Positions 6,827 through 58,113 of a DNA stretch of 64,000 bases are shown here, one piece after another. A program made the position numbers and the translations under genes. Within the stretch, counting starts at the first letter, position 1, and each line of letters opens with the position of its first letter. The stretch covers positions 67 through 64,066 of the forward strand of contig JAXHUQ010000001.1 in the NCBI GenBank assembly GCA_034189535.1, in the 5' to 3' direction. The notes under the pieces are model-generated. The model saw only the letters and a program-made list of their open reading frames with translations. It was not told where the DNA came from and ran no database searches. The DNA is from Halobacteriota archaeon. Lineage in GTDB: Archaea > Halobacteriota > Syntropharchaeia > DAOWMC01.

Positions 6827-7147
6827 TCATCCGCTCAGTTTGATGATCGCCTCTGCAAGATCTCCATTCGATTCTTTCAACGCAGCAACTACATCTTCTT
6901 CACTTGCCCCTGTCTGTTCAATAACAAGTTTGACGTCCTCATTAGGTAGGGAGGATATCGATCGCTCTTCCGGTGTCCCGACGATCTGATAAGTCTTTGA
7001 ACCCATGGCATCCATTATCGTAACCTCTGCATCTTTGAAGACGATCTCACGATCAGACGTCCTTATTATGACTTCTTGAACATCTTCTACTGGGTCAACA
7101 TTGATACCCATCTGCTTCATCATCTGTTTAACCTTTCTCGGGTTCAT
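6827..7147 (-). CDS. nac: Nascent polypeptide-associated complex protein (archaeal NAC alpha, with a C-terminal UBA domain)
   Basis: 'MNPRKVKQMMKQMGI' NAC domain and a C-terminal UBA-like 'EEDVVAALKESNGDLAEAI'. The start was moved to the internal Met. Confidence 0.8.
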   Translation of the reverse strand: MNPRKVKQMMKQMGINVDPVEDVQEVIIRTSDREIVFKDAEVTIMDAMGSKTYQIVGTPEERSISSLPNEDVKLVIEQTGASEEDVVAALKESNGDLAEAIIKLSG

Positions 7148-7393
7148 TCCCCTTGTTCCACCTGGAAACACACATAACACCTCATTATACTTTCAACATG
7201 AATAATAGCACTCCGCTTTATTATCTACTTTTCCAATGGGATAGTGACAGAGATATTTTGATCTCCCTTAAAAATTGGTAAAGACAAAAAATGAAACTCA
7301 CAAAAATTGTGTATTAAGTGTACGAGTTGGTATTTTATGAAAAATATGTACCAATAGGTAAATTTCTACGAAAGGTTTAAATATGTGTCACTT

Positions 7394-7411
7394 GTAACCA
7401 ATAATGGTTAC
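7394..7411. promoter_or_regulatory. Perfect 18-bp palindrome GTAACCA-ATAA-TGGTTAC upstream of the fdh operon, a candidate operator. An A/T-rich TATA-like 'TTTAAAT' lies about 25 nt before the fdhA start.
   Basis: Seen directly in the sequence, about 70 nt upstream of the fdhA TTG start. Confidence 0.4.
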
Positions 7412-7478
7412 TTTAGCTGATATCAGTTACAGGAAGATGTCGGTTGAACCATCTATTTAAATTATTGGGGGTAAAAGT

Positions 7479-10262
7479 TTGGGAACGAAAACGAGATCAA
7501 TTCTCGGTGAGCTTAGTTTGACAAGACGTTCGTTCACTAAGATCACCGCAGCTGTTGCGGCTACTGCTGCAATGTATAAGGGATTTGGCAAACTCGCTAA
7601 ATACGCAAAAGATACCGGTTACATGGACGATGTGATGGTAGAAGCTGCAGACACTGCTAAAACAGAGCAAGTGAAGAGTATCTGCTCTTTTTGCTCGGTT
7701 GGCTGTGGATATATCGGCGTTGTGAAAGATGGAGTCTTCACTGGAATGGAACCATGGGAAGATCACCCCATAAATCAGGGTGGATTGTGTTCAAAAGGTA
7801 CGGCATTGGTAGATGTCACCAACTCTGAAAAACGACTGAAATATCCGATGGAGAAGGTAGGCGGTAAGTGGAGAAGGATTACTTGGGACGAAGCCATAGA
7901 GAAAGTTGGCACTCAGCTAACAAGCATAAGAGATACTTATGGCCCCGATTCTGTCTTCATGTGCGGACTTGTTCACGGATCAAATGAAGAAGCGTATATG
8001 TTCAGAAAGTTTGGTATGCTATTCGGGACGAACAACATCGACCACCAGGCTAGGATATGTCACTCAACGACTGTAGCAGGTCTTCTGAACACCTTCGGAC
8101 ATGGTGCGATGACAAATACAATTATCGCCATGCAACACGCAAAATGTCATTTCTTCTTTGGATCGAATGCAGCTGAGGCACATCCTGTCTTCATGCAGAA
8201 GATACTTGATTCAAAGGATCGGGGTGCTAAGATCGTCGTTGCGGACCCGCGATTTACAAAAACGGCTGCTAAGTCTGATTTCTACGTTAGGTTCAGGCCC
8301 GGTTCGGATATCGCATTCCTTTACGGCCTCATAAATGTGATACTCGAGAACGGATGGCAAGATCAAGAGTACATCGACAACAGAACCTATGGATTTGAGT
8401 ATGTAAAAGAGGCTGTGAAAGGCTATACCCCTGAAGTAGTTGAGAAGATAACCTGGGTAAGTGCCGACGACTTAAGAAAGGTTGCTGAGATGATCGCAAA
8501 GAATAAACCGAGTAATATCATCTGGTCGATGGGAGCAACCCAACACAGTGTGGGTTCTCAGATCATTCGAGCTGCGGCAATATTGCAGTGTATCCTTGGT
8601 AACCAGGGAGAATGGGGTGGAGGTTGTATACCAGTCCGTGGACATTGTAACGTCCAGGGTGTAACTGATATGTGTGTCCTGTCTCACTTCTTACCAGGGT
8701 ATTACGGCGTAACAAGTGAAGGTTCGTGGGATTGGTATTCGAAGGTCTTCACAGATACGCCAAGTACATCAGGCTCCATTACATTCGATGAACTCAAGGG
8801 GAGATTTGCAACCTACAATGGCGAGAGCATGATGACCAAGATCGGCTTTGCTGTCTCAAGATGGTATGAAGGGGTCTTGATGCCCGAATCTGATATTGAC
8901 CAGCCCCATAATATCAAAGCTGCAATCCTATGGGGTGAAGCCACAAGCTCGATTACCGAGATGAAGAGGGAGAAAGAGGCGATGGAGAAACTGGACTTGC
9001 TTGTTATCGTCGATCCATTCCCGACAAGCGCTTCTGCAATGCCTGATAGAGCTGATGGGATCATACTGTTACCTGCAGCGACAAGGCAGGAGGGTACCGG
9101 TAGTGTGACAACCACCGGAAGAGAGTGGCAATGGAGAGATGTTGTTGTACCGCCTCTCTACGAGAGCAAGACTGACATGGAGATATTCCAGCTTCTCGCA
9201 AATAAACTGGGTTTCGGTGCTCATTTCGATTACAGTAGCATAGAAGACGTGACCCGGGAGATAAACCTCGCATGCAGGCCAATTGGTCTTCAAGGGCAGA
9301 CACCTGAGCGGATGAAGAAGCAGAAGGCGAACGCCCATACATTTGAGACTGAGTATGGAAGAGCTGTAGGCGGTCCTTGTGATGGCGAATATTGGGGATT
9401 ACCGTGGCCATGCTGGACGACTGATCACCCTGGAACTCCGATACTTTACAATGACAACGCTCCGGTAATGGAAGGAGGGCATGATTTCAGGGCAAAGTGG
9501 AAGTATCCTGACGATGAGCCCAATGCAGGAGAGGAGATTGTAAGGGGCAACCTACCACCATCAGGTACGGGAGGCACCATACATTGGACATATAATTACG
9601 CAAAGGATCCATCTGGTGAGGTTAACAGACAGGCCCTCAGCGAAGGAAACCCGCCGACAGGTAGAGGAAGGGCTATGCTGAGAGTAGCCGGTTGGACTGA
9701 TGAGGTCCCCGTACACAGAGAGCCACTGGAGAGTCCCGAACCGGATCTTGTTGCAGCTTATCCTACTTATGAAGATAAGACGTTCTACAGGATACCAACC
9801 AATTTCAAGACTGAACAGCAGAGATCGATCGCTGAAGGACGTCACATTAAATACCCAATAGTACTTACAACAGGAAGACAGGTTGAGCATCACGGTGGAA
9901 GCGCTCAGACCAGAGGATCAAAATATCTGGCCGAACTTCAACCTGAGATGTATGTGGAGATAAACCCCGCACTAGCTGCTGATAAAGAGATCAAGCACTG
10001 GGACTTCGTCTGGGTTGAGTCTGCAAGAGGGAGATGTAAAGTAAGAGCCTATGTGACAGACAGAGTCAACGAGAAGACAGTCTTCATGCCATACCATTGG
10101 GCAGGTATCTTCGAGGGCGAATCATATGAAGACAGGTATCCTGATGGTTCCGCAGAGTTCAAAATTGGGGATTCAGCAAACATCATAGCTTCAGCAGGAT
10201 ATGACGAACAGACACAGATGCAGGAGACCAAAGCTGCTCTGGTTAATATCTATAAGGCGTAG
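7479..10262 (+). CDS. fdhA: Formate dehydrogenase catalytic subunit (Mo/W-bisPGD), Tat-exported, Cys-type rather than selenocysteine
   Basis: Tat motif 'TRRSFTKI'; N-terminal Fe-S motif 'CSFCSVGCGY'; 'HQARICHSTTVAGL...GHGAMTN' aligns with FdhF 'QARV-U-HGPSVAGL', with a TGT Cys codon at 8058-8060. No in-frame TGA over 927 aa. Confidence 0.8.
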   Translation: MGTKTRSILGELSLTRRSFTKITAAVAATAAMYKGFGKLAKYAKDTGYMDDVMVEAADTAKTEQVKSICSFCSVGCGYIGVVKDGVFTGMEPWEDHPINQGGLCSKGTALVDVTNSEKRLKYPMEKVGGKWRRITWDEAIEKVGTQLTSIRDTYGPDSVFMCGLVHGSNEEAYMFRKFGMLFGTNNIDHQARICHSTTVAGLLNTFGHGAMTNTIIAMQHAKCHFFFGSNAAEAHPVFMQKILDSKDRGAKIVVADPRFTKTAAKSDFYVRFRPGSDIAFLYGLINVILENGWQDQEYIDNRTYGFEYVKEAVKGYTPEVVEKITWVSADDLRKVAEMIAKNKPSNIIWSMGATQHSVGSQIIRAAAILQCILGNQGEWGGGCIPVRGHCNVQGVTDMCVLSHFLPGYYGVTSEGSWDWYSKVFTDTPSTSGSITFDELKGRFATYNGESMMTKIGFAVSRWYEGVLMPESDIDQPHNIKAAILWGEATSSITEMKREKEAMEKLDLLVIVDPFPTSASAMPDRADGIILLPAATRQEGTGSVTTTGREWQWRDVVVPPLYESKTDMEIFQLLANKLGFGAHFDYSSIEDVTREINLACRPIGLQGQTPERMKKQKANAHTFETEYGRAVGGPCDGEYWGLPWPCWTTDHPGTPILYNDNAPVMEGGHDFRAKWKYPDDEPNAGEEIVRGNLPPSGTGGTIHWTYNYAKDPSGEVNRQALSEGNPPTGRGRAMLRVAGWTDEVPVHREPLESPEPDLVAAYPTYEDKTFYRIPTNFKTEQQRSIAEGRHIKYPIVLTTGRQVEHHGGSAQTRGSKYLAELQPEMYVEINPALAADKEIKHWDFVWVESARGRCKVRAYVTDRVNEKTVFMPYHWAGIFEGESYEDRYPDGSAEFKIGDSANIIASAGYDEQTQMQETKAALVNIYKA

Positions 10263-10273
10263 GGGGCTAAAAG

Positions 10274-10786
10274 ATGAAATTCGTAATAAATATTGAGCGA
10301 TGTATCGATTGCGGTGGTTGCTGGGTTGCATGTAAACAGGCAAATGATGTCGATGAGGAGATCCAAAGAATCAGAATAGTGACAGTAGATGAAGGTGTTG
10401 CCGGGGAGAAGAGTATACCTGTCCCTTGTATGCACTGTAGTCAGCCTGCCTGCATGAATGTATGTCCGGGAGAAGCGATAAGCAAGAGATCCGACGGAAT
10501 CGTTCTTGTAGATCAGAGCAAATGCATCGGATGCAGGTACTGTAATATGGTGTGTCCATTCGGATCTCCACAGTTCAAAGAGTCCGGAAGTAAGATGAAC
10601 AAATGCACATACTGTGTTGAGAGGATAGACGCGGGACTCAGACCTGCGTGTGGTATCTTCTGTTCGACAAAGGCACTGTACGTTGGAAAATCTGAGTCTG
10701 ATATTGATTCTCACGCAACAAAGATCGGTGCTAGAAAGCTTGTCGAGATAACCGACCCGGATGTGTACATAAAAGGGAACATTTGA
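10274..10786 (+). CDS. fdhB: Formate dehydrogenase iron-sulfur subunit (4x[4Fe-4S] ferredoxin-like)
   Basis: Four Cys clusters (CIDCGGCWVAC, CMHCSQPACMNVCP, CIGCRYCNMVCP, CTYC...C...C); lies 11 nt after fdhA. Confidence 0.75.
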   Translation: MKFVINIERCIDCGGCWVACKQANDVDEEIQRIRIVTVDEGVAGEKSIPVPCMHCSQPACMNVCPGEAISKRSDGIVLVDQSKCIGCRYCNMVCPFGSPQFKESGSKMNKCTYCVERIDAGLRPACGIFCSTKALYVGKSESDIDSHATKIGARKLVEITDPDVYIKGNI

Positions 10787-10787
10787 G

Positions 10788-11315
10788 GTGAAAGAGATGA
10801 ATAGAAAACAAACAATAGCCTTCATGGCATCGATGATTGCACTTTTGGCTATAGGGTTTGCCAGTTCTGTCTCCGCTGAGACCTTCGGAGAGCACCATGC
10901 ATCAATAGGGCCTTCAATACCAGCCGATCCGACGAACGAAGATTGTCTTAAATGTCATTCGTCGATGCTCAAGGAGGGAGATACTGAAGGAGTAAAAGCA
11001 TTCCACATAAAACATGTGGAGACTCTGAGTATGAGTTGCATTCAGTGTCACAAAGTAGATGAAGAGTTACCAACTCTCAAACGGCTTGTTTCAGAGGACA
11101 CTTGTGTGCCCTGCCACGAAGAAGGCAGCATGGGTCGTGAGATCTTTACATCAGCAGATGACGATATGCAAACGACAACTGACGATAAGGAAACGACTAC
11201 TTCAGACACTACAACAGTTGGAGACGATGACGAAGAAACTCCGGGATTTGAGGTGATCTTCGCTGTGACAGGACTTCTTGCAGTCGCGTATCTTGTACTT
11301 AGAAGAAACAAGTGA
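10788..11315 (+). CDS. Secreted tri-heme c-type cytochrome with a Thr/Asp-rich linker and PGF-CTERM archaeosortase-A sorting signal
   Basis: Signal peptide; three CxxCH motifs (CLKCH, CIQCH, CVPCH); C-terminal 'TPGFEVIFAVTGLLAVAYLVLRRNK' (PGF, then TM helix, then basic tail). Start overlaps the fdhB stop. Confidence 0.75.
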   Translation: MKEMNRKQTIAFMASMIALLAIGFASSVSAETFGEHHASIGPSIPADPTNEDCLKCHSSMLKEGDTEGVKAFHIKHVETLSMSCIQCHKVDEELPTLKRLVSEDTCVPCHEEGSMGREIFTSADDDMQTTTDDKETTTSDTTTVGDDDEETPGFEVIFAVTGLLAVAYLVLRRNK

Positions 11316-11316
11316 A

Positions 11317-11344
11317 GGGGAAAACTACTTCCCCGTAATTTTTA
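11317..11344 (+). terminator. Hairpin GGGGAA-(6 nt)-TTCCCC followed by a T-rich tract, a putative terminator after the fdh/cytochrome operon
   Basis: Seen directly in the sequence immediately after the cytochrome stop. Confidence 0.4.
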
Positions 11345-11436: not shown

Positions 11437-11748
11437 AATGAGAGAGGAAGGGCGACTGCCGGTAGCAATCTTACATAGATTGTGGCTGAGGAAAGTCCCC
11501 CCACCATCTGGACACACGAACACCGATTGGTGTAGGGCGAGAGTCTTGGCTCTGGCACAGAAACGATACCACCGCATATATATGCAATGATACAGAAATG
11601 TTGAGGTCTTATGTTGGTGGGTGGAACGGCGAAACCTCGTGGGTGCAAGCGAAAAGGGCAGATAAGGCGTCCAGACGATGCTCTTTAAAATATGCGCTAA
11701 GATGAATGTCGCCTCGAACAGAAGGGGGCTTACTCTCCTCACTCGGGT
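11437..11748 (+). ncRNA. rnpB: RNase P RNA (archaeal type)
   Basis: Universal CR-I 'GAGGAAAGUCC' at 11488-11498 and CR-V 'ACAGAAGGGGGCUUAC' at 11718-11733; CR-IV-like 'GGUGGGUGGAACGGCGAAACCUCGUGGGUGCAAGCG'. The ends are approximate. The minus-strand ORFs called here are spurious. Confidence 0.75.
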
Positions 11749-11878: not shown

Positions 11879-12589
11879 ATGGTCGAATATAAACTCGGCA
11901 TAAGCGGATTGGATGATGTGATAGGGGATGTGAGGGGCGGATCCAATATCATGCTGATGGGACCTCCAATGAGTAAAAAAGAGGTTATTATCAATAACAT
12001 CGCTTATCAGGGCCTTAAGACAGGGGAATCCTCTATATTTATTTCTACAGGAGAATCCGGCGAGAGTATAATTCGTTGGTTCAAAGATAACGGAAAAGAT
12101 ATCAATGGTTATATCGACAGGCTTGGTGTTATCGATTGCGTATCAAAGACTCTCGGGCTCAACGTCGAGGATACCGAATCTATAAAGAGGATATCTTCGC
12201 CGGTAAATCTGACCGGTATCAGTGTAAGTATTACTAACTTTTTTGAAGAATTCTGGATGAAGAAAGGAATCCAGAAATCAAGGCTTTGTGTGGATTCTCT
12301 CTCAACGATACTTATGTACTCAAATCTGCAGACTGTCTTCAGATTTCTCCATGTCCATACCAGGAGGATCAAGACTGCAGGAGCTCTTGGGGTATATATC
12401 ATCGAGAGTGGTATGCATGATGAACAGACAATAACCACTCTAAAACAACTTTTTGACGGAATCATCGAGATAGAAGAAGAGAACGAATCGTACTTTATCA
12501 GGGGTGTTGGGTTGACAAAAAAACCAACAAAGTGGTTTGAGTACGAGGCAGACGGTGCAGAGATGATCGTTAAACATAAGGAGAGGTGA
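11879..12589 (+). CDS. KaiC/RadA-like RecA-superfamily protein with a degenerate P-loop (probably inactive)
   Basis: 'GISGLDDVIG..GGSNIMLMGPPMSKKEV' has KaiC-type architecture, but the Walker A GxxxxGK[ST] is replaced by GPPMSKK. Confidence 0.5.
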   Translation: MVEYKLGISGLDDVIGDVRGGSNIMLMGPPMSKKEVIINNIAYQGLKTGESSIFISTGESGESIIRWFKDNGKDINGYIDRLGVIDCVSKTLGLNVEDTESIKRISSPVNLTGISVSITNFFEEFWMKKGIQKSRLCVDSLSTILMYSNLQTVFRFLHVHTRRIKTAGALGVYIIESGMHDEQTITTLKQLFDGIIEIEEENESYFIRGVGLTKKPTKWFEYEADGAEMIVKHKER

Positions 12590-13767
12590 GGATGATTGAG
12601 ATCGGAATCCCTAAAATAGATGATTATCTAAAAGGTGGGTTACCAATCGGAAAATCACTCCTGTATTATATTCATCCGGGTGTGGAAGGGGACATATTCG
12701 GCATGCAGACTCTTTACACCAACCTTAGGAAGGGGCATAAAGGGATATGTATAACTACGACAGCCAGTCCTGAGACTTTACGGGAGAGGTTCAGAGAGTA
12801 TGACTTTGACCTTGAGAAGTACGAAGAAAATTTTGAGATTATCGACGCGTACTCGGCTTTGATCGGTGCAAACTCGTCTGAAAAATATGTTGTTGACAAC
12901 CCGGAGGATATTAAAAACATCGATAAAGTGATAAGAGAAGCAATTGAGGATTCTTCTGGAGGGCTTATTATCCATGGATCTCTCTCGAATATTATGGATA
13001 TGTGCGGTGAAGAGGAGACGCTTGAGTATATAGAAGGCTGGAACAAGAGTATGCTATTATATGACGGCGTCGGGATATACAATTTTACAGCCTGGCCCTA
13101 CTCAGATGAGACCATTAAGAAGGTGAGGGATGAGTTCTTCAATGCCGTTGTTAAGATAGGCGGGGTTGCTGAGAAGGTGATATTCGGGCAATACTATTCT
13201 GTCTCCAAGTCCGACTGGACGGATGGTAATCAGAGCCATTCAATTCTATTCAAGATAATTAAGCCGGGAGGTGTAAGGGCTTACCTTCCGAAGATTCTCG
13301 TCACAGGTCCTTTCAATGCAGGAAAATCGACATTTATACATTCGCTTTCGACAAGATCCGTATCTGTTGACAGATTCGGGACGACTGTTGCTCTGGATCA
13401 CGGTCATGTGGACCATAACGGTTTCTCGGCAGATATCTTCGGAACTCCGGGTCAGGAGAGGTTCGACCCGATCCTTAAGACGCTTGGTGGTGAGGCAATG
13501 GGTGTTTTTCTTGTGATAGATTCGACCAAACCTGATGAGTGTGAAAGAGCCAGACAGATGCTTGACATTACTAAGACATTTGGGCTACCATCTGTTGTAG
13601 TTGCAAACAAGCAGGACATTCCAGGTGCATCAAGTGTTGATGATTTAAAGAGTGAGATGGCCATCTTGGATGAACAGATACCTATAGTACCAGTCGTTGC
13701 AAAGGATGGTAAGGGTGTTATTGAAGCGTTTGAAATGCTTATAGATCGGATTATGGTGAGGCTATGA
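12586..13767 (+). CDS. Fusion protein: N-terminal degenerate KaiC/RecA-like domain plus C-terminal small Ras-like (MglA/Arf-like) GTPase
   Basis: N-term 'GIPKIDDYLKGGLPIGKSLLYY' is KaiC-like without a GKT P-loop. C-term has G1 'GPFNAGKST', G2 Thr 'FGTTVA', G3 'FGTPGQERF' and G4 'ANKQD'. Confidence 0.65.
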   Translation: MRMIEIGIPKIDDYLKGGLPIGKSLLYYIHPGVEGDIFGMQTLYTNLRKGHKGICITTTASPETLRERFREYDFDLEKYEENFEIIDAYSALIGANSSEKYVVDNPEDIKNIDKVIREAIEDSSGGLIIHGSLSNIMDMCGEEETLEYIEGWNKSMLLYDGVGIYNFTAWPYSDETIKKVRDEFFNAVVKIGGVAEKVIFGQYYSVSKSDWTDGNQSHSILFKIIKPGGVRAYLPKILVTGPFNAGKSTFIHSLSTRSVSVDRFGTTVALDHGHVDHNGFSADIFGTPGQERFDPILKTLGGEAMGVFLVIDSTKPDECERARQMLDITKTFGLPSVVVANKQDIPGASSVDDLKSEMAILDEQIPIVPVVAKDGKGVIEAFEMLIDRIMVRL

Positions 13768-14129
13768 GTACGGTAAAAGATATGCTTGATAAGCTTTTGG
13801 ATGACCTCAAGAGGGTTGGAAATATCGAAGCTTCGGCAGTGGTCTCGCGTGATGGCCTTCTCATGGCATCGGATATCCCCGATGGTGTCCATGCCGAGAC
13901 ATTTGCTGCAATGAATGCGACGATGATGGGTGCTGCAGAGACGGCCATATCGGAACTTAATAAAGGAATCCCTGACAGGGTCATAATCGAATCAAAAGAA
14001 GCTAAAGTAATAGTCACTGGCGCCGGTCAGAAGGCACTTTTAGTTGTCATGTCGAGGCCCGAGGCCGGACTAGGATTGGTTCTCGTAGAGATGGAGAAGG
14101 TAACAGAGAAAATTAAAGGGTTGCTGTAA
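13764..14129 (+). CDS. Roadblock/LC7 (MglB-like) domain protein, paralogue 1
   Basis: 121 aa with the typical 'VEASAVVSRDGLLMASDIP...ETFAAMNATMMGAAE' Roadblock fold pattern; start overlaps the GTPase stop. Confidence 0.75.
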   Translation: MSTVKDMLDKLLDDLKRVGNIEASAVVSRDGLLMASDIPDGVHAETFAAMNATMMGAAETAISELNKGIPDRVIIESKEAKVIVTGAGQKALLVVMSRPEAGLGLVLVEMEKVTEKIKGLL

Positions 14130-14220
14130 AAGTTGGTCTTGATATTAAAAAATTAAAACTTGCCGAAAAAATCATGAGTAAAGAGATGCATAAACAATAT
14201 GGATATTCAAGTGTGATAGT

Positions 14221-14787
14221 GTGAAGGATAAAGTTTATTCTCAATTCTGGTACGAATCAGAAAAAGGTGCTGTGATAAGTAATACTATTAAAGGCAGATA
14301 CGTCATAACCCCACATAGCTTCCTACATATAGTTACGGAAGAGTACAAGAAAGTTGCAGGAAAGGGGGCAGCTGTAATACTTTATGCAATGGGTTTTGAG
14401 GATGGAATCAAGATAGGTCAGGCTATGTCAGATCAATTCGAGATCCATAACATAAAAAAATATAAAAAGGCAATCTCAGCATTTTCCGGGGTGGCGCAAG
14501 GTGCTGTAAATTTCTTTTTGGATTATTTTAAATGGGCAACCGTACTTGATCTTGATATGGATCTGGAAAATATGCGTGTCGTGATAAAGCTATCAGACCA
14601 TGTATTCACGAGATACCAAGAAGGAAAAGAAGAGTCCTACTGCGATTGGATACGTGGATGGATCGCGGGTTTGTTTACAGTCCTTCTTGATGAAGGCATG
14701 GCCTGTCAAGAGACCAAGTGTAAGACACTTGGTGATGAATATTGTGAATTTACTATTGGTAGAAAGGAGGAGATTCTACTTGGCTAA
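14221..14787 (+). CDS. V4R-domain protein (Bet3/TRAPP-like fold)
   Basis: C-terminal V4R Cys motif 'CQETKCKTLGDEYCEFTI'. Confidence 0.6.
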   Translation: MKDKVYSQFWYESEKGAVISNTIKGRYVITPHSFLHIVTEEYKKVAGKGAAVILYAMGFEDGIKIGQAMSDQFEIHNIKKYKKAISAFSGVAQGAVNFFLDYFKWATVLDLDMDLENMRVVIKLSDHVFTRYQEGKEESYCDWIRGWIAGLFTVLLDEGMACQETKCKTLGDEYCEFTIGRKEEILLG

Positions 14788-15262
14788 GACTGACCTCAAC
14801 AAAAATATCTTTGACGTCTACGGTGAGTACGCCATATATCACCCAGACCTTATTATAGTGAATCGTAAGGTCTCAAGTAGTATCATTGGCTCCATTTCAA
14901 AGACAGTCGATTATAATATTGGAAAGAGGATAGGAAAGATAGTTGCAGAAGAATGCAAAAAACTTTTCAAGAACAATCCACTGGATGCCTCTTTTGAGAT
15001 TATTGAATACAGCGGATGGGGGCAGATAAAGATCGACAGGAGTGAGAATGTTGTGAAGGTGCGTAACTCACTCGTCTCAAGGTACTATCTAAAACATGAA
15101 GGTGCTTCAAATGATACGATTGATGACATTATGAGTGGAATAATTTCCGCTATATTCGAAGAGATCGAGGGGAAGGAGTGCAAAGTTACCGAAACCAAGT
15201 GTATAGCGAAAGGCGATGAATACTGTGAATTTACGTTAAGTTTTGGTAATTTAAACGAATAA
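14780..15262 (+). CDS. V4R-domain protein, second copy; start re-assigned to TTG with a GGAGG Shine-Dalgarno 8 nt upstream
   Basis: V4R motif 'CKVTETKCIAKGDEYCEFTL'. The track ORF 14600..15262 overlaps the previous gene in another frame. AGGAGG at 14766-14771 precedes TTG at 14780. Confidence 0.55.
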   Translation: MAKTDLNKNIFDVYGEYAIYHPDLIIVNRKVSSSIIGSISKTVDYNIGKRIGKIVAEECKKLFKNNPLDASFEIIEYSGWGQIKIDRSENVVKVRNSLVSRYYLKHEGASNDTIDDIMSGIISAIFEEIEGKECKVTETKCIAKGDEYCEFTLSFGNLNE

Positions 15263-15339
15263 AATAGCAAAGTTTATATTATGTGTGTCCTTTGAATTGG
15301 ATACATCGAGAAATAGTATGCGGGGTCGCATGGGTTAAA

Positions 15340-15705
15340 ATGACAACGACAAAAGAGATGCTTGAAAAACTTTTGGATGACCTCAAGAGGGTTGGAAATA
15401 TCGAAGCTTCGGCAGTGGTCTCGCGTGATGGCCTCCTTATGACATCAGATATACCCGGTGGCGTCCATGCCGAGACATTTGCTGCAATGAATGCGACGAT
15501 GATGGGTGCTGCAGAGACGGCCATATCGGAACTTAATAAAGGAATCCCTGACAGGGTCATAATCGAATCAAAAGAAGCGAAAGTTATTGTTACAGGCGCA
15601 GGTCCAAAAGCACTTTTGGTTGTCATGGCGAGGGCAGAGGCCGGACTAGGTCTTATTCTGGTCGAGATGGAGAAGGTAACAGGGAAGATCAAAGAACTGC
15701 TCTAA
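15340..15705 (+). CDS. Roadblock/LC7 protein, paralogue 2 (near-identical to paralogues 1 and 4)
   Basis: Protein sequence nearly identical to the 13764 and 17399 copies; start at the internal Met 'MTTTKEM'. Confidence 0.7.
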   Translation: MTTTKEMLEKLLDDLKRVGNIEASAVVSRDGLLMTSDIPGGVHAETFAAMNATMMGAAETAISELNKGIPDRVIIESKEAKVIVTGAGPKALLVVMARAEAGLGLILVEMEKVTGKIKELL

Positions 15706-15854
15706 AGGTGTTGATCAGCTTTCTTTTTTGTACCACAAATTTATATATAAATAGTTCCATATAGCTACAAGGACTTTAGTTATCCTGTTGAGGGGATATA
15801 CCGAGCCATATATATGATTGTCGTATTGATCAGATATATCTGCAAGGTGAAATA

Positions 15855-16223
15855 ATGCCAACTATTATTGAGATGTTGGAAAAGATCTTGATGGATCTTA
15901 AGATGACAGGGGAGGTGAGCGGTTGTGCTATCGTCTCACGAGACGGGCTGTTGATGGCCTCAGATATTCCAAAAGAGGTGGATGGTGGTACATTCGCTGC
16001 TATGAGTGCAACCATGCTTGGTACAGCAGAGACCGCTGCTTCCGAGCTCGTTGAAGGAGTACCTGATAAAGTCATCGTTGAATCCCCCAATGGTAAGATA
16101 ATCATCTCCGGTGCTGGCTCCAGTGCTCTTATTGTCTGTACAACACCATCTGAAGCGAAGCTAGGTTTGGTGCTTGTTGAGATGGCACGTACTTCGGAAA
16201 AGGTCAAAAAAGTGTTGTTATAG
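15855..16223 (+). CDS. Roadblock/LC7 protein, divergent paralogue 3
   Basis: 'CAIVSRDGLLMASDIP...GTFAAMSATMLGTAE' is the same fold pattern at about 50% identity. Confidence 0.7.
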   Translation: MPTIIEMLEKILMDLKMTGEVSGCAIVSRDGLLMASDIPKEVDGGTFAAMSATMLGTAETAASELVEGVPDKVIVESPNGKIIISGAGSSALIVCTTPSEAKLGLVLVEMARTSEKVKKVLL

Positions 16224-17402
16224 GTGATGTTGTTGATCGAAACAGGGATAGAGCATCTTGACAGAAGTCTTGGTGGAGGCATACCTAATGGAAATACACT
16301 TCTTTATTACATACAGCCAGGTATCGAAGGAGAAATATTCGGTATACAGACGCTATTTCATAACCTGGAAAAAGGGTACAAAGGAGTCTTTATAACATCT
16401 TCGGCTCACCCTTCTGCAATTAAAGAATACTTTCTTGGCTTTGGATGGGATGTAGACAAGTACGAGGGTAAATTTGCTATGGTTGACGCATACTCTGCAC
16501 TTGTGGGTGCAGATTCCACTGAGAGATACGTGGTCGAGGATCCTGAGAATATTGAGAACATCAATGAGACCATCTCCGAAGCGATGTTGCATTTTCCCGG
16601 TGAGGTGATCGTATGTGGGTCACTCTCAACAATAATGGACCTGTGTGGTGAAATAGAGACGCTGAGATGTATTGAGAACTGGAATAAGATCATCTGCGTA
16701 AACGACAGCGTAGGAATCTACAATTTTACAGCGTGGCCTTACTCACAGGAGACGATTAAAAAGATTAGGGATGAGTACTTCAATGCCACGATAAAAGTTG
16801 GAGGAATAGCCGAGAGGGTCATCTTCGGTCAGTATTACGGGGTGCCAAAGGTGGACTGGACTGACACAATTATAGAATCCGTTTTATTCAGGATATACCG
16901 TCCTGGCGGAGTAAGGGTATATCTACCAAAGATACTGGTGACGGGGCCATTTAACGCTGGGAAATCTTCATTCATCCGCTCGCTTTCATCAAGGTCTGTT
17001 TCTGTTGATAGGTTTGGTACAACAGTGGCATTAGATCACGGTCACGTTGATCATAAAGGTTTCTCCGCCGAGATATTCGGAACGCCCGGTCAAGAGAGGT
17101 TCGACCCGATCCTTAAGACGCTTGGTGGTGAAGCAATGGGTGTTTTTCTTGTGATAGATTCGACAAATCCTTCAGAATTTTCTCGCGCAAAACGTATGCT
17201 CGACATCACCAAGACGTTTGGATTACCATCGGTTATTGTCGCAAACAAACAGGATATGCCCGGTGCATCAAGCATCGAATCTATCAGAACGCAGATGAAA
17301 CTTCCCGAAGACATTCCCATAGCACCAACGGTTTCAAAAGAAGGTGAAGGGGTAAAGGAAGCGTTTGAGATGCTTATTGATCGTATTATGGGAGGATTAT
17401 GA
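16224..17402 (+). CDS. Second fusion of a degenerate KaiC-like domain with a small Ras-like GTPase (paralogue of 12586..13767)
   Basis: Same architecture, with 'GPFNAGKSS', 'FGTTVA', 'FGTPGQERF' and 'ANKQD'. A stretch of about 75 nt (17093-17167) is identical to 13458-13532 apart from one mismatch. Confidence 0.65.
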   Translation: MMLLIETGIEHLDRSLGGGIPNGNTLLYYIQPGIEGEIFGIQTLFHNLEKGYKGVFITSSAHPSAIKEYFLGFGWDVDKYEGKFAMVDAYSALVGADSTERYVVEDPENIENINETISEAMLHFPGEVIVCGSLSTIMDLCGEIETLRCIENWNKIICVNDSVGIYNFTAWPYSQETIKKIRDEYFNATIKVGGIAERVIFGQYYGVPKVDWTDTIIESVLFRIYRPGGVRVYLPKILVTGPFNAGKSSFIRSLSSRSVSVDRFGTTVALDHGHVDHKGFSAEIFGTPGQERFDPILKTLGGEAMGVFLVIDSTNPSEFSRAKRMLDITKTFGLPSVIVANKQDMPGASSIESIRTQMKLPEDIPIAPTVSKEGEGVKEAFEMLIDRIMGGL

Positions 17403-17764
17403 GTACAGTAAAAAATATGCTTGATAAACTTTTGGATGACCTCAAGAGGGTTGGAAATATCGAAGCTTCGGCAGTGGTCTCACGTGATGGCCTCCTCATG
17501 GCGTCAGATATTCCTGGTGGTGTCCATGCCGAGACATTTGCCGCAATGAATGCGACGATGATGGGTGCTGCAGAGACGGCCATATCGGAACTTAATAAAG
17601 GAATCCCCGACAGGGTCATAATCGAATCAAAAGAAGCCAAAGTAATAGTCACTGGCGCCGGTCAGAAGGCACTCTTGGTTGCCATGTCGAGGCCCGAGGC
17701 AGGGCTCGGACTAGTTCTTGTTGAGATGGAGAAGATATCGGAAAAATTGGCGGAGGTGCTCTAG
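17399..17764 (+). CDS. Roadblock/LC7 protein, paralogue 4
   Basis: About 95% nucleotide identity to 13764..14129. Confidence 0.75.
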   Translation: MSTVKNMLDKLLDDLKRVGNIEASAVVSRDGLLMASDIPGGVHAETFAAMNATMMGAAETAISELNKGIPDRVIIESKEAKVIVTGAGQKALLVAMSRPEAGLGLVLVEMEKISEKLAEVL

Positions 17765-18427
17765 ATGGGGGATACGGAAAATTCCATACCATTTTTTGAT
17801 AGGGATGAGGAGTCGAGACACTTCAGGATAGGAGGTGTACCACATGCCCTGATCGATAACGAGACAATTGCAGAATTATATGTACTTCTTATCAGATCAA
17901 TCGGAAAAGAGATGACAAGAAGATTTTTTTACGATTCGGCCAAGAAAGCCGCGTTTAATCTGCAGAAAAGGATGATTGAAACATCTGATGCAATAACTGA
18001 TGATCCGGACAAGATCGTTGAGAGAATATCTATGTTTCCATATTATCTCTCCAGTTATGGATATGGTACTGGTGAGACCATAAAATCAGATGCGAGTTCA
18101 GGTAAGTATGTTTTCAGGATAGAACATTCCTTCATATCAGACGAGTTGAAGACCAGAGGTCTTGAAGATCCTACATGTTCATTCATAGCCGGTATCTTTG
18201 CCGGACTTGCCGAAGCTTGGACTGGAGAGGAGTACTCCTGTAGAGAGCTACATTGCGCCTCGAACGGATCTCCATTCTGTGATTTTGAACTCTTCCCCGG
18301 ATCTCTCACCGACAAGTTCTTCGGAGAGATTGAAAACATAAAAGACGTACTATCAAAACTGGATATTGCGGTGGAATCGATACATGAAACCATGCAGACA
18401 AAAAATGTGAGATCAAAAGTCAAATAA
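17765..18427 (+). CDS. V4R-domain protein, third copy
   Basis: C-terminal 'CRELHCASNGSPFCDFELF' V4R Cys motif. Confidence 0.55.
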   Translation: MGDTENSIPFFDRDEESRHFRIGGVPHALIDNETIAELYVLLIRSIGKEMTRRFFYDSAKKAAFNLQKRMIETSDAITDDPDKIVERISMFPYYLSSYGYGTGETIKSDASSGKYVFRIEHSFISDELKTRGLEDPTCSFIAGIFAGLAEAWTGEEYSCRELHCASNGSPFCDFELFPGSLTDKFFGEIENIKDVLSKLDIAVESIHETMQTKNVRSKVK

Positions 18428-33573: not shown

Positions 33574-34131
33574 ATGAAACTAGAAGTAAGCGACTACCCG
33601 AAGCTACTAGTAAGGCAGGTTGTGGTGATCTCTACCATATCAGATAGCGGAGTATCAAATGCCGCACCATTCAGTTTGAATTCACCGATATGTTTTAACC
33701 CACCTCTCTATGGATTCTCCACGAATCCGAATCATCACACATGGAAGAATATTCAAAAGAATGAAGAGTTCGTCGTGAATGTGGTTGGAAACGACTTTGG
33801 AGAGCTGATGGAAGTACTGGAATATCCATTTGATTACGAGGTCAGTGAGATCGAGAAGGCAGGTCTTACGGAAGAGAAGGCGGAGATGGTGAAGCCCCCG
33901 AGGATCGCTGAGGCAAATGCCTGGATAGAGTGTAAGCTCAAAGATTCTATAGTCTTGGGGGATCACGTATGGGTCGTCGGAGAGGTTGTCTGTACGGGTG
34001 TCAAGGACGGTCTCTGGACTGATCAAGCGGCACTTGATCTTAAAAAAGCAAATGCCCTCTGTCACATGGGCGGTAAATTCTTCGTCAGTGATTCGAGGAT
34101 AAAAGAGTTCAACAGGGCTCAAAGGAAGTAG
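33574..34131 (+). CDS. Flavin reductase-like FMN-binding protein
   Basis: Flavin_Reduct-type pattern 'VISTISDSGVSNAAPFS'. Confidence 0.6.
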   Translation: MKLEVSDYPKLLVRQVVVISTISDSGVSNAAPFSLNSPICFNPPLYGFSTNPNHHTWKNIQKNEEFVVNVVGNDFGELMEVLEYPFDYEVSEIEKAGLTEEKAEMVKPPRIAEANAWIECKLKDSIVLGDHVWVVGEVVCTGVKDGLWTDQAALDLKKANALCHMGGKFFVSDSRIKEFNRAQRK

Positions 34132-35192
34132 ATACCTGCGACATTGAACGCCATTGCAAGGTTTCCGATAACAAGTAGAGTCCCCATCAGAATGATTGCA
34201 CGTACCCCGTTTCTTGGGGTGGGGTTTCTTGCAAGGAGATAATACGGTATCAACTGGGCGGCAATGATAGGAAATGCCCATATCAAAAATCCACGGGTGA
34301 ATAGGTACTCAAAATAACATATCAACACTATTACGAGATCCGCCAGTGCTATGCATATGAAACCGAGATAGAACGAGTTCCGAAGCCCCAATCTTGTCGC
34401 AATTGTGGTTAAGCCTTCTTTCTTATCACCATCGTAATCTACTATTGTAGTTGGCATATAGACTGCGCCGGTTCCAAGGGCAACGATGACAAACCACCAA
34501 ACAAGTTCAAAAAGAGGTCTATCCTGTCCTGCTGCGGCCCAACCGGCGAGTGAGCAAATCACACCAGCGCCAATCATACATGTCAAAAGATCGAGTCCGG
34601 GACGCTCCTTTAATCTGAAGGGGGGTGCAGAGTATAATATGGAAAGAAGTAGGCATACCGCAATAAGCAGGGTGAACAATCCTGAAATACGCAGTGATAT
34701 CAAGATTGCCATAACCATCAGTATTACAGAACTCAACATTGCTATTCCCGGACTGAGTAGCCCTGTTACGAGCGGAAACTCCTCTTTTCTTATCGATTTG
34801 TCATATTCTCTGTCCCAGTAATCATTGAATAGGAGTGTTGAACCGCCAAGGAGTGGGCCAACGACTATCACTCCAAGGAAGAATGTACTCGAAGAAGAGA
34901 TCCATTCAGCTATCCATTCTAAGATCAGCCGAATCATTCCTGCGGTTGTGGGATCTCCACCATAGTTCTCTATCAGCCATCCCCACGTCTCTTTCTGCCC
35001 TGGTAGAACCACTCTGTTTGTATATGCCCAGCTAAGGTAGTACGGCCCCATAGAGACCCACCAGAAGAGCATGTTCATATGCTTCACCAGGTACCTTAGG
35101 GTATTGACAAATGAAGAGGCTATATCGATGACCCCGTCAAGATAACTTTCGGAACTGTAGTCTTCAATCATTCTAGGATCTATTCCATTCAA
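34119..35192 (-). CDS. UbiA-family membrane prenyltransferase with an N-terminal extension
   Basis: Eight or more TM segments; 'NDYWDREYD' UbiA Asp-rich motif. Confidence 0.65.
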   Translation of the reverse strand: MNGIDPRMIEDYSSESYLDGVIDIASSFVNTLRYLVKHMNMLFWWVSMGPYYLSWAYTNRVVLPGQKETWGWLIENYGGDPTTAGMIRLILEWIAEWISSSSTFFLGVIVVGPLLGGSTLLFNDYWDREYDKSIRKEEFPLVTGLLSPGIAMLSSVILMVMAILISLRISGLFTLLIAVCLLLSILYSAPPFRLKERPGLDLLTCMIGAGVICSLAGWAAAGQDRPLFELVWWFVIVALGTGAVYMPTTIVDYDGDKKEGLTTIATRLGLRNSFYLGFICIALADLVIVLICYFEYLFTRGFLIWAFPIIAAQLIPYYLLARNPTPRNGVRAIILMGTLLVIGNLAMAFNVAGIYFL

Positions 35193-36425
35193 TCAGAGCT
35201 TCGGGGACCTATTGGGATTTAGTATGTTGTACGGATCGAATGCCATCTTCATGTCTTTCAATGCTGTAACGTCTTCACCGGTGGATTTCCTGGTGCTGTA
35301 ATCATGAACTACACCCATAACAGAGCATCCGCCATATTTCGAAACGAGCTCGTCGACCTTCTTTCCAAGTGCCATGGCTGTAACCTGACTCTTAAGGTCA
35401 TCTCCACCTTGCAGGCAGTACGGCATAAGAAGAACAGAACTCCGATCGATTATCAGGCCATTAATGGATGATTTCAGTCCCATCCCGCTTGCGATATCAT
35501 ACACTCCTGCAATCATCTCACTCATGCGCGATACCGGTATCATTGCTTCGGGCACAACAATCACCGAACCCAATTTCCTTATGCAAGCATCAAAATATCT
35601 ATTGTCCCATTCCTGCTTTGCAACTTTTGCATCCTCTTTTTTCCCTTTTCCCATAAGCTGATCAATTATGCCCTCTTCATAATCCATCATCTCTTTTGAT
35701 CCCTTCAGTGTAATGTTTAGTATCGGACCTTCAGGAGCATCGGTACCGACATTACTGAGGAACTCGGAATGGTTCTTGTCTGTAAATGATATGTTGAAAG
35801 GTGTCACTTTTGCTCTTGTTAACACATAAGCAGCTTCGGATAGGCTATCAATATCCATAAATGAGTAGGATAACTGTCGCATCTCCTCCTTGTTGTATAT
35901 CTTCAAGGTGCTCTTGGTAATTATTCCAAGGGTTCCTTCCGCACCTACCATGAGCTCGGTCAGACTGTATCCAGAGCTATTCGAGGCCACGTCATCGAAT
36001 CCGGTGTTGATCACTTTACCGTTTGAAAGGACCACCTCAAGGGATCTTATCTGCTCCTCTATCCCGCCATACTTGTATGAACCTATGCCATAACCGCCGG
36101 TATTTATCCAACCACCGACGGTAGATGACGAAGCATTACTGGGACATGCTCCAAGAAGAAAGCCACTCTTGAGAACGGTATCATATAGCTTATCCCACCT
36201 GACTCCCGCATCTACAATAACCCTCTGATCCTCCGCGTCTACTTCGATCAACCGGTCAATATTCCCCATATCTAAGACAATGCCATCATCCGGAACCACA
36301 CCACCACTATAGATCCAACTATCACCGCCCATTGGTGTGATGGCCGTACCATCTCTCATGGCCTGCTTGACAATACTAGATACTTCTTCGGTTGTTTTCG
36401 GCTTTATGATATTAGCATTACTCAA
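35193..36425 (-). CDS. FAD-linked oxidase (PCMH-type FAD-binding; GlcD/DprE1-like)
   Basis: FAD-binding-4-like N-terminus 'AITPMGGDSWIYSGG...GIVLDMGNIDRLIEVD'; directly abuts the UbiA gene. Confidence 0.6.
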   Translation of the reverse strand: MSNANIIKPKTTEEVSSIVKQAMRDGTAITPMGGDSWIYSGGVVPDDGIVLDMGNIDRLIEVDAEDQRVIVDAGVRWDKLYDTVLKSGFLLGACPSNASSSTVGGWINTGGYGIGSYKYGGIEEQIRSLEVVLSNGKVINTGFDDVASNSSGYSLTELMVGAEGTLGIITKSTLKIYNKEEMRQLSYSFMDIDSLSEAAYVLTRAKVTPFNISFTDKNHSEFLSNVGTDAPEGPILNITLKGSKEMMDYEEGIIDQLMGKGKKEDAKVAKQEWDNRYFDACIRKLGSVIVVPEAMIPVSRMSEMIAGVYDIASGMGLKSSINGLIIDRSSVLLMPYCLQGGDDLKSQVTAMALGKKVDELVSKYGGCSVMGVVHDYSTRKSTGEDVTALKDMKMAFDPYNILNPNRSPKL

Positions 36426-38203: not shown

Positions 38204-38264
38204 ATATTGAAAAGTGACATTTCACTAGCTCAATTTATATTACAGAAAAATTAAAAATTACTCC

Positions 38265-38945: not shown

Positions 38946-39052
38946 TGTATCTCTTTCTCCTTATATATCCACTCGGTAGATACAATATATAAACATTTCT
39001 CCCTTACCTCTTAAAAAGAGAAGAGGTACGGAGTGTTACCTCAGAAGATTAT

Positions 39053-39691: not shown

Positions 39692-39868
39692 TTAAAATTA
39701 ATTTTCCTAATTTATCCGAGTTTACATCACCATACAGATTAGAAATATGGCCATTTTTCTATGCATATATGTCTTATCTTATAGTATTTATAACTTGTGC
39801 TAAGGTACTAATATTGCTCTGAGATAACAATATTGGCTTTGATTATAAACACTTGCATAAAATGTGAT

Positions 39869-56861: not shown

Positions 56862-56890
56862 CCTCAAAGACTGTTGAAGATTACCTTGAA

Positions 56891-57298: not shown

Positions 57299-57309
57299 TT
57301 GTGATAGAT

Positions 57310-57756: not shown

Positions 57757-57867
57757 TCATATTAATTCGGTTTTTTAACAAAATGTAATTGAATTAAGTT
57801 TTTAATCAAAAACCGAGCTTTTTTTGGGCACATTTTTTATCTACCTAACGGCATATTTAATTTTGGA

Positions 57868-58113
57868 GTGATCCGTATGAAGATTAAAAATAAAAGGGGA
57901 ACTTACTCAGACGATAGTGGTATGAAAGTAATGGCGTTACTGGAATTAATCGTTGACGAAGAAAAGATGGATCAGATATTATCTGAGGAAGTCGAGGCAC
58001 GTGGATTAGACCCGAATAGTTCCTTGGTAAAAGCAAGTAGGGAAGTAGCAATCATCGCTATCAGACCGATGCTTGAATGTATGTTGGGCTGTGTGAAATG
58101 CCAGATAAAGTAG
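57868..58113 (+). CDS. Small hypothetical protein
   Basis: 81-aa ORF between the two feo loci with no recognisable motif. Confidence 0.2.
   Translation: MIRMKIKNKRGTYSDDSGMKVMALLELIVDEEKMDQILSEEVEARGLDPNSSLVKASREVAIIAIRPMLECMLGCVKCQIK

Follow-up and report, generated by a model that had tools for sequence, protein, structure and literature searches.

The 64,000-nucleotide (nt) stretch of DNA analysed here, hereafter the window, covers positions 67 to 64,066 of contig JAXHUQ010000001.1 (assembly GCA_034189535.1) from a Halobacteriota archaeon. It contains three same-strand genes in a tight operon, fdhA, fdhB and a gene for a triheme cytochrome c, with gaps of 11 and 10 nt between them. We consider it likely, for the architecture and the mechanism alike, that this operon encodes a heterotrimeric, exported formate dehydrogenase (FDH) in which a lipid-anchored cytochrome takes the place of the membrane subunit. 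Judged from its sequence, it is a rare, lipid-tethered cytochrome c version of a known exported three-subunit FDH and not categorically new. The operon and its surroundings are laid out as follows.

7466..7472, forward strand: Shine-Dalgarno-like TGGGGGT, 6 nt ahead of the TTG start of fdhA, read off the sequence.
7479..10262, forward strand: fdhA, 927 amino acids (aa), TTG start; catalytic subunit of the molybdenum/tungsten (Mo/W) bis-pyranopterin guanine dinucleotide type.
10274..10786, forward strand: fdhB, 170 aa; electron-transfer subunit.
10785..10791, forward strand: Shine-Dalgarno GAGGTGA of the cytochrome gene, overlapping the fdhB stop codon, read off the sequence.
10797..11315, forward strand: triheme cytochrome c, 172 aa.
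11317..11344, forward strand: terminator-like hairpin GGGGAA-aactac-TTCCCC followed by a T5 run, at the end of the operon.
11440-11744, forward strand: archaeal ribonuclease (RNase) P RNA (Rfam RF00373, 201.6 bits, full length), directly past the fdh terminator.

The operon is thus bounded by the RNase P RNA downstream and by a NAC-domain gene (6827-7180, minus strand) upstream. FdhA is 100% identical to NCBI MDY6864350.1 and FdhB is identical to MDY6864351.1, both from the metagenome-assembled genome (MAG) named 'Halobacteriota archaeon'. Since the Shine-Dalgarno sequence of the cytochrome gene overlaps the stop codon of fdhB, translational coupling of the two genes is suggested. The cytochrome open reading frame (ORF) formally opens at GTG 10788, which an initial annotation of this DNA, made from the sequence alone, had taken as its start. 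This GTG lies within the GAGGTGA Shine-Dalgarno sequence and all homologues of the cytochrome start with MNRK or MSRK, so that the true start is most likely ATG 10797. The form beginning at GTG 10788 had no exact match in the protein collection, as would be expected if translation starts elsewhere.

In order to establish the identity of the enzyme we examined the export signal and the active site of FdhA, for which the following features were located.

7524-7547, forward strand: twin-arginine motif TRRSFTKI, followed by a hydrophobic stretch (L-T-R-R-S-F-T-K-I-TAAVAATAA).
7683-7799, forward strand: [4Fe-4S] motif Cx2Cx3Cx27C (C69-x2-C72-x3-C76-x27-C104-S-K-G), with a conserved Lys after it.
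8058-8063, forward strand: Cys194-His195; TGT at 8058-8060 is the in-frame codon 194, in the motif HQARICHSTTV.
8637-8639, forward strand: Arg387, in VRGHCNVQG; counterpart of FdhH Arg333 in the RG(Q/H)xNVQG motif.

Pfam recognised the Molybdop_Fe4S4 (53.3 bits), Molybdopterin and Molydop_binding domains in the protein. The initial annotation had proposed that FdhA carries cysteine where FdhF and FdnG have selenocysteine, and the alignment bears this out: Cys194 falls on selenocysteine 196 of E. coli FdnG (45-residue query, ungapped against 1kqf residues 175-215), and the F420-dependent selenocysteine FDH 9t1s has a non-standard residue X in the same column. In FDHs the selenocysteine or cysteine ligand directly precedes a histidine (U140-H141 in FdhH, U196-H197 in FdnG), and the same arrangement is found here. 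The Arg387 motif VRGHCNVQG aligns with LRGQNNVQG of 7qv7, and both His195 and Arg387 are kept in all eight of the archaeal homologues compared. The closest solved structure is 9VAP_A, the FdhA1 of Shewanella oneidensis MR-1, which matches over the full length (E 6.6e-255, 851 bits), as against only about 272 bits for the Desulfovibrio enzymes. The S. oneidensis FdhAB has been purified and is a tungsten-dependent enzyme with five [4Fe-4S] clusters which oxidises formate at 253 s-1 and reduces CO2 at 52 s-1; in vivo it is encoded together with a cytochrome b subunit, FdhC (PMC13066108). By analogy with this characterised homologue (SoFdhAB; PMC13066108), the window FdhA is expected to be the Cys-type, metal-dependent catalytic subunit of an FDH, with activity towards formate/CO2.

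FdhA could in principle be a different member of the dimethyl sulfoxide (DMSO) reductase family, such as a nitrate, thiosulfate/polysulfide or arsenate reductase, with the cytochrome as its electron donor. The initial annotation had named a grouping with such reductases as an outcome that would speak against its FDH reading. We found FdhA to group with the FDHs instead, and consider this alternative very improbable. Among the NCBIfam models those for FDH lead widely, Fdh-alpha (TIGR01591) being best with 534.8 bits and NasC, PhsA and NapA following at 323, 223 and 158 bits. The closest solved protein is a validated FDH, and the Cys-His dyad as well as the arginine are conserved. On the other side stand the equivalog cut-offs of the FDH models, which FdhA does not reach (see below), and the haloarchaeal homologues at 46-47% identity, some of which are annotated merely as 'molybdopterin-dependent oxidoreductase'. 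In addition Chadwick et al. warn, for the cytoplasmic Hdr-linked type, that the substrates of divergent FdhA homologues are uncertain (PMC9012536).

The N-terminus of FdhA (...SLTRRSFTKITAAVAATAA) starts MGTKTRSILGELSLTRRSFTKITAAVAATAA and contains a textbook twin-arginine motif. The TRRSFTKI motif, already pointed out in the initial annotation, is kept in all archaeal FdhA homologues examined, and its N-terminal alignment to the FdnG, NapA and PhsA models begins at model position 2. The Pfam TAT_signal model did not reach E<=0.01 on the window FdhA but is recorded for homologues at 61-81% identity, and genes for NarJ/TorD-type (NarJ-like) chaperones adjoin the operon in relatives. Taken together, these observations point to export of FdhA through the twin-arginine translocation (Tat) pathway. 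The 16 cysteines of FdhB are arranged in four cluster motifs and would suffice to bind four [4Fe-4S] clusters; the protein matches Pfam Fer4_11 (5.3e-24) and the PDB entry 9VAP_B (E 7.9e-36). Neither a signal peptide nor a hydrophobic segment was found in its sequence and hydropathy profile; it is therefore presumably co-exported with FdhA.

The third gene was described in the initial annotation as encoding a cytochrome with three CxxCH motifs, a Thr/Asp-rich linker and a PGF-CTERM signal, and all of these elements were found.

10797-10877, forward strand: Sec signal of the cytochrome, ending ...SVSA before ET.
10944-10958, forward strand: CLKCH, residue 50 of the cytochrome.
11037-11051, forward strand: CIQCH, residue 81.
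11103-11117, forward strand: CVPCH, residue 103.
11154-11240, forward strand: Thr/Asp linker, 29 residues, with 10 Thr and 9 Asp.
11241-11312, forward strand: PGF-CTERM, C-terminal PGFEVIFAVTGLLAVAYLVLRRNK-stop.

The PGF-CTERM has the expected layout, a PGF tripeptide with a hydrophobic helix and a basic tail behind it at the very C-terminus, and passes both curated cut-offs (39.9 bits against 18.8 for Pfam PF18204; 36.8 against 24.5 for TIGR04126). Hydrophobic segments are confined to the two termini and an internal transmembrane helix is absent, consistent with a protein that would be lipid-anchored on the outer face of the membrane by archaeosortase A. When nine full-length family members were aligned, the invariant residues were exactly the three CxxCH motifs together with His34, His70 and His73, which makes these three histidines the probable distal ligands of three bis-His hemes. 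The linker is kept among the homologues in length and composition, not in sequence. Pfam puts the cytochrome in the c3/c7 superfamily, with Cytochrom_c3_2 above its threshold (28.1 against 25), Cytochrome_C7 borderline (24.9 against 24.8) and Cytochrom_CIII below (20.3 against 22.9).

To determine how common this cytochrome is and in what setting it occurs, we searched for its relatives and inspected their loci, which are designated here by L numbers. The family proved to be rare. Five clusters were obtained from 5.8 billion proteins by a word-indexed search, and a hidden Markov model (HMM) of the heme domain run against 1.84 billion representatives gave 33 matches at E<=1e-3 and eight at E<=1e-10, several of the HMM matches being repeats within giant multiheme proteins. 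Scanning a genome collection (one genome per species) with the cytochrome alignment returned one true relative, a 'tar biofilm' MAG, and three weak matches to unrelated cytochromes; a metagenome scan added only two contigs, both of already-known types. The cytochrome gene lies directly 3' of fdhA-fdhB at every locus with upstream sequence, namely the window, L005-7, L012/L019, L001/L002 and L017, while the contig-cut loci L003 and L004, with the same cytochrome, show an upstream fragment or FdhB only. L005/L006/L007 are syntenic with the window and share 65% identity in the cytochrome; the corresponding values are about 48% for L012/L019 and 46-49% for L001/L002. The cytochrome of L017 (616-1658), P0261, is a distant homologue whose gene comes directly after sequence for the C-terminus of FdhA and for an FdhB of 171 aa. 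PGF-CTERM is absent from it; instead its N-terminus bears a lipobox (LMAGC), and it has a Thr/Pro-rich linker and extra C-terminal CxxCH motifs. Two independent lipid tethers are thus found on the same heme domain beside the same enzyme, which argues that tethering at the membrane surface next to FdhAB is a selected property.

The third gene is exchanged in related operons. It encodes a cytochrome b561 (Ni_hydr_CYTB) in L013 and L015, and likewise in L014, where FdhA is 58% identical to that of the window; in the ANME-1-like locus L016 (ANME, anaerobic methanotrophic archaea) it is a DmsC-like anchor, and CcmF and c7-like cytochromes are encoded in the vicinity. L013 and L014 come from Methanocellales MAGs. 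The scanned ORFs flanking the window operon contain neither the Ni_hydr_CYTB nor the DmsC family. The FdhAs of L013, L015 and L016 are 76-81% identical to that of the window (58-81% with L014 included), and FdhA identity is not sorted by partner: the window FdhA shares 81% with L016 (DmsC), 79% with L015 (cytochrome b) and 54% with L001 (cytochrome c). FdhB follows the partner. The FdhBs encoded beside cytochrome c are 63-84% identical to each other and 46-58% identical to those beside cytochrome b or DmsC. Moreover, the loop of the fourth cluster motif is much shorter in the cytochrome-c-type FdhB (CTYCVERIDAGLRPAC) than in the cytochrome b type and in Shewanella. From these identity matrices, FdhB and the cytochrome behave as a co-inherited module joined to different FdhA lineages. 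The FdhB subtype with its short fourth-cluster loop is the best available evidence, though indirect, for a specific interface between FdhB and the cytochrome. The active site, the synteny and this co-variation together support the central proposal of the initial annotation, an exported Cys-type FdhAB with a dedicated c-type cytochrome as opposed to the cytoplasmic, F420-dependent FdhAB known from classical methanogens.

These data also bear on whether the cytochrome is a subunit at all. It may be a freely diffusing, lipid-tethered shuttle of the pseudoperiplasm that is merely co-transcribed with a soluble two-subunit enzyme, in the manner of Desulfovibrio FdhAB and its c3 pool. The S. oneidensis FdhAB remains stable and active when the third subunit is missing (PMC13066108), the long and flexible Thr/Asp stalk would give the cytochrome a wide reach, and small PGF-CTERM multiheme cytochromes have been proposed as CymA-like shuttles in ANME (PMC9012536). 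Yet the gene order is strict at every locus with upstream sequence, even where the anchor differs as in L017, and the cytochrome is inherited together with one particular subtype of FdhB; both argue for a specific FdhB-cytochrome interface, although neither is proof of a permanent complex. On balance we think a mere shuttle unlikely. It is tempting to go one step further and to view FdhB with the lipid-anchored cytochrome as a self-contained and exchangeable 'wiring' cassette which has been recombined onto different FdhAs, thereby uncoupling formate/CO2 chemistry from the quinone pool. We put this forward with considerable doubt and as a tentative suggestion.

The closest characterised homologue of the system is FdhA1B1C1 of S. 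oneidensis MR-1 (SO_4509-4511; the cryo-EM structure 9VAP is of FdhAB). Like the window it has a Tat-exported, Cys-ligated FdhA in which the active-site motif reads ARICHSTTVAG, and its FdhB likewise accommodates four [4Fe-4S] clusters. Its third subunit is the integral-membrane, quinone-reducing cytochrome b FdhC, whereas that of the window is a triheme cytochrome c predicted to be lipid-anchored; in addition, the FdhB of the window has 170 aa, compared with 204, and the much shorter fourth-cluster loop, and the Shewanella enzyme is bacterial, with tungsten as its metal, while the window is archaeal. Exported FdhAB(C) has been documented in ANME-1, Methanoperedenaceae, Methanocellales and 'Ca. 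Methylarchaeales' (PMC9012536, PMC7327174, PMC9478090). The archaeal FdhABC operons (L013-L016, Methanoperedenaceae, 'Ca. Methylarchaeales') agree with the window in Tat motif, active site and gene order, with FdhA at 58-81% identity. They differ from it in that their third gene, Ni_hydr_CYTB or DmsC, gives a direct link to quinone or methanophenazine, that their FdhB is of the other subtype (46-58% identical) and that most of them carry an adjacent polyferredoxin/MvhD and a NarJ-like chaperone gene, neither of which lies beside the window operon. As its third gene reads as a cytochrome c, the operon does not belong to the quinone-reducing FdnGHI/FdhABC class, in which the third subunit is an integral-membrane dihaem cytochrome b or a protein of the DmsC type.

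The initial annotation had compared the operon with the FdhAB and cytochrome c3 of Desulfovibrio. This likeness holds as a functional analogy only, in that FdhABC3 (FDH3) of Desulfovibrio vulgaris, or its FdhAB with the c3 pool, also has a periplasmic FdhAB pass electrons to a small class III multiheme cytochrome c of its own; the nearest relatives are the Shewanella-type FdhABC and the archaeal cytochrome b/DmsC operons. Desulfovibrio has selenocysteine in FdhA, an FdhB with three clusters (PMC13066108) and a soluble tetraheme c3, as against cysteine (TGT) and three hemes in the window, and the window FdhB is not an FDH3 member since it scores below the cut-off of that family (see below). The concept of an archaeal FDH held on the outer face of the membrane by a c-type cytochrome is the same as that of an earlier proposal: according to PMC9012536, Meyerdierks et al. 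2010 proposed an exported FDH in ANME-1 that is either free or anchored by a c-type cytochrome. For most ANME-1 genomes Chadwick et al. 2022 favour a DmsC-like anchor (PMC9012536). The small PGF-CTERM cytochromes of ANME-2/Methanoperedens resemble the window protein in having a Sec signal, a heme domain, a linker and an ArtA-processed PGF-CTERM (PMC9012536, PMC5244752), but they are encoded by orphan genes or belong to methanophenazine:cytochrome c modules and are not the third gene of an fdhAB operon, and the window family is distinct in sequence. In the open-access literature we found no description of an fdhAB operon with a PGF-CTERM triheme cytochrome as third gene, or of co-variation between FdhB and the cytochrome.

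Several further observations were made on the related loci. In L012 (13893-19483) and L019 (4932-7653) the cytochrome gene is followed by a gene for a 682-aa polyferredoxin with an MvhD/FlpD domain and by one for a NarJ-like chaperone; in cytochrome b and DmsC-type operons the polyferredoxin/MvhD and NarJ-like pair precedes fdhA. Farther on in L012, mcrB and mcrG occur beside an enoyl-CoA hydratase gene, without an adjacent mcrA. Two types of fdhAB-cytochrome c operon co-occur in independent metagenomes, as L005 and L012 (ENA ERZ27237542) and as L006 and L019 (JGI 3300027852); their FdhAs are 81% identical to each other, and they may stem from one organism with paralogues or from two related species that always co-occur. 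The cytochrome-b-type operons of L014 (14729-18696) and L015 (13908-15662) adjoin an ABC transporter with a TOBE-domain ATPase, which in L014 has a molybdate/tungstate-type periplasmic binding protein that bears a PGF-CTERM, a hint at linked metal supply.

Returning to the exported, cytochrome-anchored FDH that we favour, the following mechanism may be envisaged. FdhA would be folded and loaded with its cofactors in the cytoplasm, namely a Mo- or W-bis-pyranopterin ligated by Cys194, as well as a single [4Fe-4S] cluster, and would leave through Tat, bringing along the signal-less FdhB with its four [4Fe-4S] clusters. The cytochrome would leave through Sec and have three covalent, probably bis-His hemes fitted outside the cell, after which archaeosortase A would cleave the PGF-CTERM and join the protein to a membrane lipid by way of a flexible, probably glycosylated Thr/Asp stalk of about 30 residues. 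It would stand in for the quinone-reducing subunit of the sister operons, that is, the cytochrome b FdhC or the DmsC-like anchor. Electrons from formate would pass to the Mo/W centre and on through five iron-sulfur clusters and three hemes to a partner encoded elsewhere, which could be another cytochrome or a membrane complex. Since the module is without a quinone-reactive membrane subunit, its hemes must exchange electrons with something that is not encoded here.

FDH chemistry is reversible, and thus the same module could release formate from CO2; for exported archaeal FDHs both formate oxidation and formate release have been proposed (PMC7327174, PMC9012536, PMC13046784). Run in reverse, the same architecture would serve as a CO2 reductase, in which electrons from oxidative metabolism (of alkane, methane or acetyl-CoA) reach the cytochrome and are used to make formate for a syntrophic partner. 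The CO2 reduction rate of 52 s-1 of the homologous S. oneidensis enzyme (PMC13066108) is in keeping with this, as are the proposals of formate release through a reversible membrane-bound FdhAB in Methanoperedenaceae (PMC7327174) and ANME-1 (PMC9012536). Among the relatives, L012 adjoins mcrB/mcrG, enoyl-CoA hydratase and acyl-CoA-handling (beta-oxidation-like) genes, and L001/L002 belong to the 'tar biofilm' MAG; the window itself carries Ftr and CdhD. The context of the relatives makes a formate-releasing, syntrophic role a serious rival, one that we nevertheless hold to be the less probable direction of electron flow. The potentials of typical c3/c7 hemes would disfavour CO2 reduction unless formate is kept very low, the sequence is without a direction-specific feature, and the mcr genes observed lie in a relative, at L012. 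In the experiments as cited in PMC9012536, moreover, formate addition did not inhibit the anaerobic oxidation of methane.

Against the picture of an exported FDH with a cytochrome as its third subunit the following results have to be set. FdhA scores below the equivalog cut-offs (534.8 against 666.25 for TIGR01591; 396.4 against 814.2 for TIGR01553), which we attribute to insertions that split the match into three stretches. The best NCBIfam model for FdhB, FDH3_beta (NF038355), reaches 155.9 bits against a cut-off of 240 and matches residues 1-115. Neither the sequence nor the profile of the cytochrome gave a significant PDB match, the best being a domain of MtrC at E 0.04, and its AlphaFold model, built on a 6-sequence alignment, is unusable (predicted local distance difference test, pLDDT, 51; predicted template modelling score, pTM, 0.27). 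None of about 50 window ORFs matched the Pfam families for cytochrome maturation (ccm, heme lyase), archaeosortase (artA), Tat translocation, pterin-cofactor synthesis or chaperones, ORFs below 150 aa being mostly unscanned, and the polyferredoxin and chaperone genes that are tied to the operon in relatives were not found among the window ORFs scanned. A second c-type cytochrome ORF was not found in the 64 kb, and an electron acceptor or donor for the cytochrome is not encoded nearby. Nothing in the 64-kb window speaks for the ANME-type extracellular electron transfer that had been suggested in the initial annotation. Finally, whatever goes beyond the gene architecture is deduced from the DNA of an uncultured MAG.

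The region ahead of fdhA was examined for elements that may govern its expression, and two were distinguished.

7358..7383, forward strand: promoter block GTAAATTTCTACGAAAG-G-TTTAAATA, 26 nt, with an archaeal TATA-box-like octamer at 7376-7383.
7394..7411, no strand assigned: imperfect dyad GTAACCA-ATAA-TGGTTAC, 10 nt downstream of the TATA box.

The block GTAAATTTCTACGAAAG-N-TTTAAATA is identical, apart from N, in the window, in L005/L006/L007 and in L001/L002, and is absent from the rest of the window and from the other loci; it probably acts as a promoter. A perfect 18-bp palindrome and candidate operator had been reported at 7394-7411 in the initial annotation. The 18-mer GTAACCAATAATGGTTAC matches its reverse complement GTAACCATTATTGGTTAC at 16 of 18 positions, with perfect 7-bp arms and a 4-nt spacer, and is unremarkable by chance, since the window contains 39 such inverted repeats and at least one appears in 22% of shuffles of the 298-nt intergenic region. 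The operator assignment itself fares better. Beginning 10 nt past the TATA box, the dyad covers the point at which transcription is expected to start, which is the usual site for an archaeal repressor. Orthologous promoters keep the dyad symmetry with other bases, TAATTAATATTAGTTA in L005 and TAATCAAAATTGATAG in L001. The changes partly compensate each other (TAACCA-ATAA-TGGTTA in the window, TAATTA-ATAT-TAGTTA in L005 and TAATCA-AAAT-TGATAG in L001), as judged from three sequences in AT-rich DNA. We therefore retain the dyad, imperfect and statistically unremarkable as it is, as a reasonable candidate for a repressor operator, for which the evidence is suggestive. A role as an RNA hairpin was rejected, since its 5' arm would be situated upstream of the point where the TATA position predicts transcription to start.

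Conservation in this region extends beyond the promoter. Window positions 7358-7570 correspond to 6540-6760 of L001 and 6530-6750 of L005, and these stretches are nearly identical in the promoter block as well as in the Shine-Dalgarno sequence and first codons of fdhA. The Tat signal peptide, MGTKT[RK]SILGELS[LI][TS]RR[ST]FTKITAAVA, is nearly identical between the window and L001, and the mature FdhAs of the two share 54% identity. This suggests either that the body of FdhA has been exchanged behind a conserved leader, giving the gene a mosaic origin, or that a regulator and a chaperone which binds the signal peptide constrain the leader.

The remainder of the window is archaeal in character, with genes for TFIIB, eIF2-alpha, NAC, the small subunit of PolD and the archaeal RNase P RNA, and it includes genes of the tetrahydromethanopterin/acetyl-CoA pathway and of coenzyme F420 (Ftr, CdhD, CofD). 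The closest named relatives of Ftr are 65-71% identical and scattered over Hydrothermarchaeota, ANME-1, Methanocellales and Syntropharchaeia. Four further clusters were noted. Positions 33574-36425 comprise a flavin reductase-like gene (33574-34131, forward strand), a UbiA-family prenyltransferase (34119-35192, reverse strand) and an FAD-linked oxidase (35193-36425, reverse strand), which could relate to the synthesis of a membrane electron carrier or lipid, and hence to what the cytochrome might ultimately reduce. A reverse-strand run at 36587-44188 encodes probable surface proteins, among them a 1439-aa DUF2341 ORF (39869-44188) and a 538-aa NPCBM-associated ORF (36587-38203), along with two ORFs without a family match (38265-38945 and 39053-39691); PGF-CTERM is present in none of the run. 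On the forward strand, 11879-18427 holds two paralogous small-GTPase signalling cassettes resembling MglA/MglB-type systems, in which a KaiC-like ATPase domain is fused to an Arf/Ras-like GTPase (12586-13767 and 16224-17402), accompanied by a KaiC-like DUF7504 gene (11879-12589), a Roadblock/LC7 gene (13764-14129) and V4R-domain genes (14221-15262 and 17765-18427). Two FeoB ferrous-iron transporters lie at 55152-61593, also on the forward strand. The first (55152-56861) is intact; the second is divided into an N-terminal gene (59616-60218) and a C-terminal gene (60313-61593), and a DtxR-type iron-dependent repressor (57295-57756) is encoded between the two transporters.

Should the operon encode merely another periplasmic FDH that feeds an ordinary respiratory chain, it would be of moderate, specialist interest for archaeal bioenergetics and syntrophy. 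FdhAs of 76-85% identity are combined with cytochrome b, DmsC or cytochrome c as third subunit, with FdhB tracking the partner, which is a clear instance of modular evolution in respiratory complexes. The enzyme is closely related to the Shewanella FdhAB, which is oxygen-tolerant and electrode-active and is used in CO2 electroreduction; a version with a natural heme 'plug' could therefore also interest bioelectrocatalysis. If FdhB and the cytochrome do form an exchangeable cassette, the near-identical promoter, dyad and Tat peptide would mark a shared regulon and a dedicated chaperone, and Mcr-bearing or hydrocarbon-associated archaea could use the cassette to plug formate into a pseudoperiplasmic cytochrome network, or to vent electrons as formate. 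It is debated whether electrons from methane- and alkane-oxidising archaea reach their partners through soluble carriers such as formate or directly through cytochromes, and an exported FDH wired to a lipid-anchored c-type cytochrome would physically join both routes.

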